A stretch of 64,000 bases of DNA from Myxococcota bacterium (GTDB lineage Bacteria > Myxococcota_A > Polyangia > Polyangiales > Houyiibacteriaceae). Positions 677 to 1,178 of this stretch are shown here, one piece after another; within the stretch, counting starts at the first letter, position 1; the number at the start of each line of letters is the position of its first letter. Where the stretch lies: positions 1-64,000 of the forward strand of contig JBCCEA010000004.1 of assembly GCA_039030515.1 (NCBI GenBank), in the 5' to 3' direction. The notes under the pieces were generated by a model that was not told the DNA's origin, did no database searches, and was given only the letters and a program-made list of their open reading frames with translations. The position numbers and the translations under genes are program-made.

Positions 677-1178
677 CCCCCCAGCGGGCCTAGGTTGATC
701 GAAACAGCCAGCGCCCCCGAAGCACAGGAGCGCAGGAGTAGTTTCGCTACTTCAAGCTCCGAGCATGGGAGGAAAGCAGCTGTTTGGGCCGACTCACTCA
801 CCACCCCCCAGCGGGCTTAGGTTGGTCGAAACAGCTAGCGCCCCGGAAGCACAGGAGCGCAGGAGTAGTTTCGCTACTTCAAGCGACGAGCATCGGAGGT
901 AAGCAGCTGTTTGGGCCGACTCACTCACCACCCCCCAGCGGGCTTAGGTTGGTCGAAACAGCTAGCGCCCCGGAAGCACAGGAGCGCAGTAGTAGTTTCG
1001 CTACTTCAAGCGACGAGCATCGGAGGTAAGCAGCTGTTTGGGCCGACATAGGCCCGCTGGAGCGCGTCTCGATGGGTGTGAACGCTAGCGCCCCGCACGC
1101 GCAGACGTGAAGGAGTAGTTTTGCTACTTCGAACGTCGAGCATGGGAGGAAGCGGTCGTTCAGGCCTAGCGAGGCGTG
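677..1178 (+). repeat. Tandem array of 127-bp imperfect palindromic units (starts 677, 804, 931) plus a diverged fourth copy (~1063-1178)
   Basis: Near-identical units with a 127-nt period. Each has an inner hairpin GGAGTAG-TTTCG-CTACTTC and outer arms GTTGGTCGAAACAGCT/AGCTGTTTGGGCCGAC. Perfect 12-bp inverted repeat at 681-692 and 1049-1060. Confidence 0.92.

Follow-up and report, generated by a model that had tools for sequence, protein, structure and literature searches.

The repeat array downstream of the IS110 recombinase gene at the start of the window (the whole 64,000-nucleotide stretch of DNA analysed) is almost certainly a landing site of an IS621-type IS110 element and not its guide. 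At the level of sequence the analysis shows dispersal of the repeat, a fixed position of the IS junctions, guide matches, covariation, strand asymmetry and stop-codon polarity. The array units are members of a dispersed non-coding family of ~121-nt rod-like hairpins, and the window array is a mosaic cluster of this family. The arrangement is the one known for IS621 and REP sequences from E. coli, with a new target.

The repeat array and the IS110 junctions

The features at the left edge of the window are as follows:

2..478, + strand: C-terminal half of the IS110 (IS621-type) recombinase, cut by the contig start (PF02371, E 6e-17)
479..588, + strand: short right end (RE) of the IS, common to contigs C3 and C58 up to the core
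582-588, + strand: left-donor sequence ACAGTTG, terminus of the IS right end (in four DNA runs, contigs stop or branch here as well)
589..590, + strand: CT core dinucleotide, the right IS/repeat junction (CT at both ends of the C3 copy)
591..642, - strand: leftover half of an IS-interrupted repeat unit, with right target and apical hairpin (family blastn matches begin at ~590; empty equivalent at G000:C25:196(-))
643..674, + strand: lone type-B outer-stem arm (by comparison with family units)
683..803, + strand: repeat unit 1, type-A outer stem (covariance model R1, 115.9 bits)
810..930, + strand: repeat unit 2, type A, inner stem with tandem G·A (R1, 117.1 bits)
937..1060, + strand: repeat unit 3, type A, outer stem complete (R1, 124.3 bits; fold z -7.0)
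1061..1179, + strand: repeat unit 4, type-B outer stem, one-base-short form of the IS target (R1, 111.4 bits)
1179..1193, - strand: inverted remnant carrying the conserved 5' motif of a further unit (sequence comparison)
1317..3824, + strand: neighbouring comEC-like competence gene (PF03772 and PF00753)

The preliminary description of this DNA had reported three 127-nt tandem units followed by a diverged fourth copy, and both are present. The tandem units occupy 676-802, 803-929 and 930-1056, the second and the third being 94% and 88% identical to the first; TRF returns a period of 127 with 2.9 copies, and the fourth copy is 79% identical over a 68-nt core. The 12-bp inverted repeat 681-692/1049-1060 is exact, but it is not a special bracket of the array: it is the ordinary type-A outer stem of the family, and its second arm is the 3' end of unit 3. 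What was taken for a 24-bp direct repeat (643-666/1061-1084) contains one mismatch and is an isolated outer-stem arm of the family. The apical GGAGTAG is conserved except in unit 3, which has GTAGTAG. The minus-strand half-unit at 591-642, absent from that description, is the piece interrupted by the IS. The array units show 3-11 differences per 113 nt and contain no unique spacers. Elsewhere in the window TRF reports further tandem repeats at 9355-11163 (15-nt multiples), 29551-29630 (20-nt x4) and 33788-33965 (27/69-nt).

A complete copy of the IS is found on contig C3. It measures 1,289 nt core to core (CT at C3:161430 and 162719), and its left end (~220 nt) is longer than its right end (~110 nt). 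The full-length recombinase of 317 aa (G000:C3:161652-162605) contains the PF01548 (DEDD) and PF02371 (Tnp20) domains and matches ISCro4 (E 6e-32) and IS621 (E 6.5e-31) in the PDB; the catalytic D, E, D, D and the ESG serine positions align with ISCro4. The recombinase in the window has an in-frame 6-nt deletion near the protein end, which is also seen in all four DNA runs. A search of genome contigs with the IS protein gave just 2 distant loci. Two further IS110-family genes, unrelated in sequence to the window IS, are located on the short contigs C71 and C74.

In the window the right IS end stops at CT 589-590, inside a minus-strand repeat unit. The same motif forms the junction at the right ends on C4 (the window contig), C3 and C58 as well as at the left ends on C3 and C21. 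The IS contigs of four DNA runs, all from one study and possibly from the source samples, have their ends at the same points; loose contig ends there link the IS to further copies of the repeat, and the empty site is seen among them too. All junctions of the full element, in the assembly and in contigs alike, are at the same position of the repeat. Insertion into the apical loop was considered and rejected, the IS site being a conserved motif of the 3' arm. The end of C3 and the start of C4 (window 1-628) share a 634-nt overlap at 97.8% identity with an identical flank. C3 and C4 are probably linked to each other by the IS, and the window copy and the C3 copy may be one locus, so that the independent insertions would be fewer. 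No circle junction of the IS was found among the contigs of the four runs. Decayed relics of the IS left and right ends lie outside the repeat family at G000:C13:34653-34724 and C17:12970-13049.

The left end of the IS, which for the window copy would lie beyond the edge of the window, is predicted to encode an IS621-type bridge RNA with guides fitting the repeat and the IS ends; in the IS110 group it is the left end that encodes the bridge RNA, and REPs are the insertion sites of IS621 (passages of PMC11208160). The ~220 nt are predicted to fold into two internal-loop hairpins. On the C3 copy, LTG matches the left target at 8/9 positions and RTG matches one observed target form, seen in two runs, at 7/7; three of the five right junctions have A where RTG prefers T. 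LDG matches the IS right end at 8/8 positions, and RDG shows a 6/7 match plus a G·T wobble. The guide order LTG-RTG-LDG-RDG is that of IS621, and co-occurrence of LTG and LDG was met in 3/200,000 shuffles. Folding with the guides forced to be unpaired gives -65.7 kcal/mol against -79.5 kcal/mol unconstrained. No sigma-70 consensus promoter was found in the IS, and no IS1111-type guide RNA in the right end, which is ~110 nt long and yields guide matches of at most 6 letters. By analogy with IS621, the bridge RNA would be expressed and catalysis would be RNA-guided: the target loop of an RNA from the ~220-nt left end would pair with the repeat, its donor loop would pair with the IS circle junction, and the recombinase would join the two at the CT core.

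The likeness to IS621, as far as described in passages of PMC11208160 and PMC11208158, includes the DEDD and Tnp20 domains, the CT core, the long left and short right ends and the guide order, as well as the use of a single fixed insertion point within a palindromic repeat of the host (PMC11208160). The 8-nt LDG leaves the last core base unpaired here as in IS621 (PMC11208158). In contrast to IS621, the protein is distant (E 6.5e-31) and the target is a 121-nt rod instead of a ~35-nt REP. The donor-right sequence is IS621-like but one T longer, and RDG has one more A to match it (PMC11208158), and the target at the junctions is one base short. ISPpu10 of Pseudomonas putida likewise is an IS110 element inserted into a conserved multicopy intergenic stem-loop (parts of 10.64898/2026.03.19.712850).

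All five right junctions carry the target form that is one base shorter than the common site. This form is found in 9 of ~161 empty copies, with all arm types and including the unit at 1061-1179 of the window, and in 0/58 parsable copies of relatives (p 0.06); the change is almost the sole deletion outside the apical loop. It may represent the true target pool or an IS footprint, and the RDG sequence favours the former. Most repeat copies are imperfect IS targets. On C21 (G000:C21:39622-39690) an IS left end sits at the usual site, is cut after ~60 nt and is fused to the rest of another repeat copy. The fusion point is exactly the DNA coding for the left target guide, which seems to have acted as a target mimic or as microhomology for deletion.

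The preliminary description had left open whether the array is a structured repeat family targeted by the IS110 or a multi-copy guide array serving the recombinase, and the shared junction motif supports the former. That the array is a guide-RNA array (TIGR-like, or an arrayed bridge RNA) is highly improbable. The array does adjoin the recombinase gene and shows tandem periodicity and internal loops, and elements of the IS1111 group, with the bridge RNA downstream of the gene, offer a precedent (passages of PMC11208160); however, the IS ends on the right at 590 and the array is beyond it, and only 3-4 of the ~89 dispersed repeat loci touch this IS. The units lack unique spacers and do not match the donor ends, bridge-RNA-like complementarity between the array loops and the IS ends, which had been anticipated, was not found, and a complete conventional bridge RNA with its guides is predicted in the left end, upstream of the recombinase gene. 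The expectation that other IS110s would stand beside the same repeat was not borne out: the element was seen at 0/25 loci of related IS110s (33-40% identity, other genomes) at E<0.01. Proteins flanking the element in other genomes include 0/104 IS110 and one ISAzo13-type transposase (104 of 201 candidate ORFs scanned). A TIGR array consists of 36-nt units with variable spacers beside a Tas gene (passages of PMC12045711); it was rejected for the present locus, where the units are 127-nt, near-identical and dispersed and the neighbour is a full IS110. The word 'array' does not occur in the available portion of the text of 10.1101/2025.10.25.684509.

The dispersed family and its folding strand

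A blastn search of window positions 1-1300 against this genome gave 655 matches merging into 89 regions, 49 of them at contig ends. The covariance model R1, built from 78 units of this genome, finds at least 149 matches among 150 scored candidates here, a few low-scoring ones being shadows on the opposite strand. The family is dispersed, its ~89 loci lying between housekeeping genes; by the criteria of the preliminary description, which had proposed a genome scan with a covariance model, this dispersal and the lack of loop complementarity to the IS ends contradict a guide array. Regions of at least 100 nt lie outside called genes in 80/81 cases (crude gene caller), and the repeats are enriched in convergent contexts (14 convergent/2 divergent vs background 131/362; p 1e-6). 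Each unit is formed by a conserved ~70-nt core with purine-rich internal loops, tandem G·A and a GTA-loop-TAC apical stem, flanked by interchangeable outer stems. The units are combinations of three outer-stem types and three tops, and the clusters are tandem, inverted and nested; unlike outer arms are present in 15 of 100 fully classified units. In solitary copies the outer stems are unique in sequence yet paired.

The fold proposed for the array units is supported on the + strand, where it beats shuffles (z -2.5, -3.3, -7.0 and -4.2), while the - strand is mostly no better than shuffles (z -1.0, +0.5, -2.3 and -1.6). Covariation extends across the family: in alignment A2 (this genome) both partners vary in 29/38 pairs, and the covariation score is 0.368, compared with 0.149 in shuffles and no more than 0.086 when the register is slid. 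The score on 35 copies from other genomes is 0.545, in an alignment that was fitted to the model. The inner stem is likewise confirmed, two variable pairs being Watson-Crick or tandem G·A in 58/61 copies. The change from CCCCCGA/CATGGGA to CCCCGGA/CATCGGA, regarded earlier as compensatory, does not keep pairing across the family: just 11/61 copies pair (G·G in 34, C·C in 15). Both 61-copy counts leave out 17 copies with the other top type, which are shifted in the alignment. Folding and aligning the copies with RNAalifold recovered the outer stem and not the inner ones, because 17/78 rows of A2 are shifted by one column in the top half; therefore, the inner-stem counts of the A2 covariation are underestimates.

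Mismatches in the stems are strongly asymmetric, with 374 G·T vs 47 A·C in this genome and 136 vs 8 in relatives. Since G·T is kept over A·C, a single strand, the purine-rich one, is the folding strand. Unpaired interior positions are 72% purine. The RNA energy of the better-folding strand is -61.8 vs -46.3 for the opposite one, and it is lower in 120/121 units. G·T and G·A pairs can also form in single-stranded DNA, and the G·T excess does not separate RNA from single-stranded DNA.

Placement behind stop codons and distribution among relatives

Gene calls are crude in all of the following polarity counts. In this genome 33/33 units at most 25 nt from a stop codon are antisense to the respective gene; a looser criterion gives 48 antisense vs 16. 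The polarity holds on both replichores, with 12 units behind leading-strand and 14 behind lagging-strand genes. Replication strand as its cause was rejected in this genome (56 vs 49 units, from a crude skew estimate). In the near-complete relatives G110:C1 and G121:C1 the element strand clusters by position, which could reflect gene-strand bias. Among 40 loci of relatives (mostly one per genome, most loci of genus g3 being left out as redundant) 25 are antisense within 10 nt and none is sense. The 52 metagenome matches comprise 27 antisense vs 2 within 15 nt.

In genus g3 a copy with covarying stems is located at the nrdJ stop in many species, and in 19/23 copies the stem takes in the stop codon together with the two coding bases before it. 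A stop-spanning outer stem (TGA and two coding bases) occurs in g3 and in one copy in another family. In g3 this stem tracks synonymous Ser codon changes at nrdJ and takes different sequences at nusG and lepA. Inspection of nrdJ in nine model-negative g3 genomes showed no copy in 6 and decayed or truncated copies in 3. The nrdJ genes of genomes without the element mostly end with TAA or TAG.

R1 matches were obtained in 53/88 genomes of the family, 65/151 of the order and 19/151 of the phylum sample (all including this genome, G000), the element being undetected by R1 in 86/151 genomes of the order. Only 23-41 candidates per genome were scored in this survey, and decayed copies are missed by it. 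Among the relatives the copy number ranges between 0 and 149. Because blastn against 40 relatives detected the element in just 1, the survey required the covariance model. Rfam 15 gives no match at the gathering threshold in the window (best E 3.3), and at 20 loci of relatives the best overlapping match has E 0.062, far below the gathering threshold. Viral contigs searched with one pattern of the element gave 0 matches, and plasmids searched with two element queries gave none.

Outer stems differ between subfamilies and genomes, and there are no conserved terminal inverted repeats. Shared TA ends were absent from the 18 copies inspected; the MITE part of the REP/MITE label used previously is thus not established. 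By eye no target-site duplication was seen, the set containing no close empty/filled pair for comparison. No PF01797 protein (RAYT/Y1 transposase) was found in the own genome (85% complete), and the element was present at 0/30 Y1 loci of element-rich relatives (30 of ~75 listed Y1 matches examined); from these two results no link to RAYT as mobiliser is apparent. Five tyrosine-recombinase loci contained no full unit and one weak match of 22.7 bits (L008). Altogether the Y1 loci, the tyrosine-recombinase loci and the scanned flanking ORFs revealed no mobilising gene for the repeat. Integron attC sites were considered for the AAC/GTT triplets in the arms and rejected, as there are no cassette ORFs between the units and the triplets are not kept in relatives.

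Nature of the repeat

The family has probably been seen before, without explanation. Judging by sequence likeness, it probably corresponds to the 24 'predicted short RNA elements' of ~113 nt in Geobacter metallireducens, Gmet_R1001-R1024 (Aklujkar 2009, passages of PMC2700814). These are likewise intergenic and multicopy and have a central GTA-loop-TAC palindrome; on visual comparison their reverse complement has the same core motifs, and R1, aligned over its full length, gives 19-34 bits for metagenome loci that look nearly identical to them. The outer stems are different, and the passages of PMC2700814 concerned give no structure, polarity or mechanism. A literature search, from which most subscription papers were excluded, returned no description of the structure or polarity of this repeat. 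The available main text of 10.64898/2026.10.21.760802 contains no mention of myxobacteria, Geobacter, palindromes or stop codons.

Our best guess, held with slightly more belief than doubt, is that the repeat is a REP/ERIC-like non-autonomous element. In such an element the strand antisense to the host gene would form a single-stranded hairpin that is recognised, an as-yet-unnamed enzyme would place the element behind stop codons, and recombination would then amplify and shuffle it locally. Mobility is suggested by the copy number of 0-149, the unrelated genes neighbouring the copies, the mixed arms and tops, and the decayed or missing nrdJ copy in some species. The nrdJ position kept with covarying stems across g3 species fits a function under selection as well as selfish spread.

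The repeat is akin to REP/BIME and ERIC, as described in parts of the sources cited here, in how abundant it is, where it lies and how it serves as an IS target, yet it cannot be assigned to either. Like REP/BIME with RAYT (Nunvar 2010, PMC2817692), it is extragenic, exceeds 100 copies, forms mosaic clusters, keeps palindromy by complementary changes and is an IS110 target. It differs in being several times longer and in having mostly tandem and not alternating clusters; the GTAG/GTGG head at the 5' foot is absent, GTA(G/C/T) being located in the apical stem and the ends being variable, and no RAYT gene flanked by the element was found (PMC2817692). A further comparable element is ERIC/IRU, a ~127-bp long stem-loop that is co-transcribed with its neighbours and has orientation-dependent effects (Delihas 2008, PMC2229807). 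In contrast to it, the present repeat has no conserved TIR or TA ends, is GC-rich, and its folding strand is antisense to the abutting gene (PMC2229807).

Other readings leave the IS part unchanged. It is conceivable, but rather unlikely, that selection keeps the repeat as a domesticated cis-acting gene-end element, which would then not be mainly selfish and would act as a template-strand DNA hairpin or as an mRNA 3' signal for termination, stability or translation. The strict antisense polarity at stop codons (33/33), kept on both replichores, in relatives and in metagenomes, argues for it, as do the solitary copies with unique yet paired outer stems and the g3 stem through the stop codon and two coding bases (19/23). 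Against it, the mRNA strand is the one that folds less well, the element goes undetected in 86/151 genomes of the order, and 6/9 model-negative g3 genomes have no nrdJ copy. Arm-to-arm template switching would also make compensatory changes, though without keeping G·T over A·C. We consider unlikely the proposal that the repeat is a multi-phylum class of gene-end elements, that is, a strand-specific rod with conserved G·A loops and with no TIR and no RAYT, which would be set or kept right behind stop codons on the template strand by machinery reading transcription or translation and not replication; in one genus its stem would enter the last codon, and the IS110 would be merely parasitic.

The reading given to the Geobacter elements, which makes each unit a small structured RNA produced by transcription antisense to the upstream gene, is improbable here. 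It agrees with the large excess of G·T over A·C in this genome and in relatives, with the purine-rich unpaired interior and with the interchange of tandem G·A pairs with Watson-Crick pairs, but such G·T and G·A pairs form in single-stranded DNA too, Rfam has no match at gathering level, and the mosaic and nested arrays look like DNA-level dynamics.

The IS110 part of the locus is one more natural pair of bridge RNA and target, in which a compensatory change linking donor and guide can be read. The repeat is more unusual: it is widespread, is absent from Rfam and seems to have been noted solely in Geobacter, as a multicopy sequence left unexplained. The strict rule of its placement, antisense, at the stop codon and independent of the replichore, points to a novel insertion mechanism or a gene-end function, and this stop-codon polarity merits its own study.
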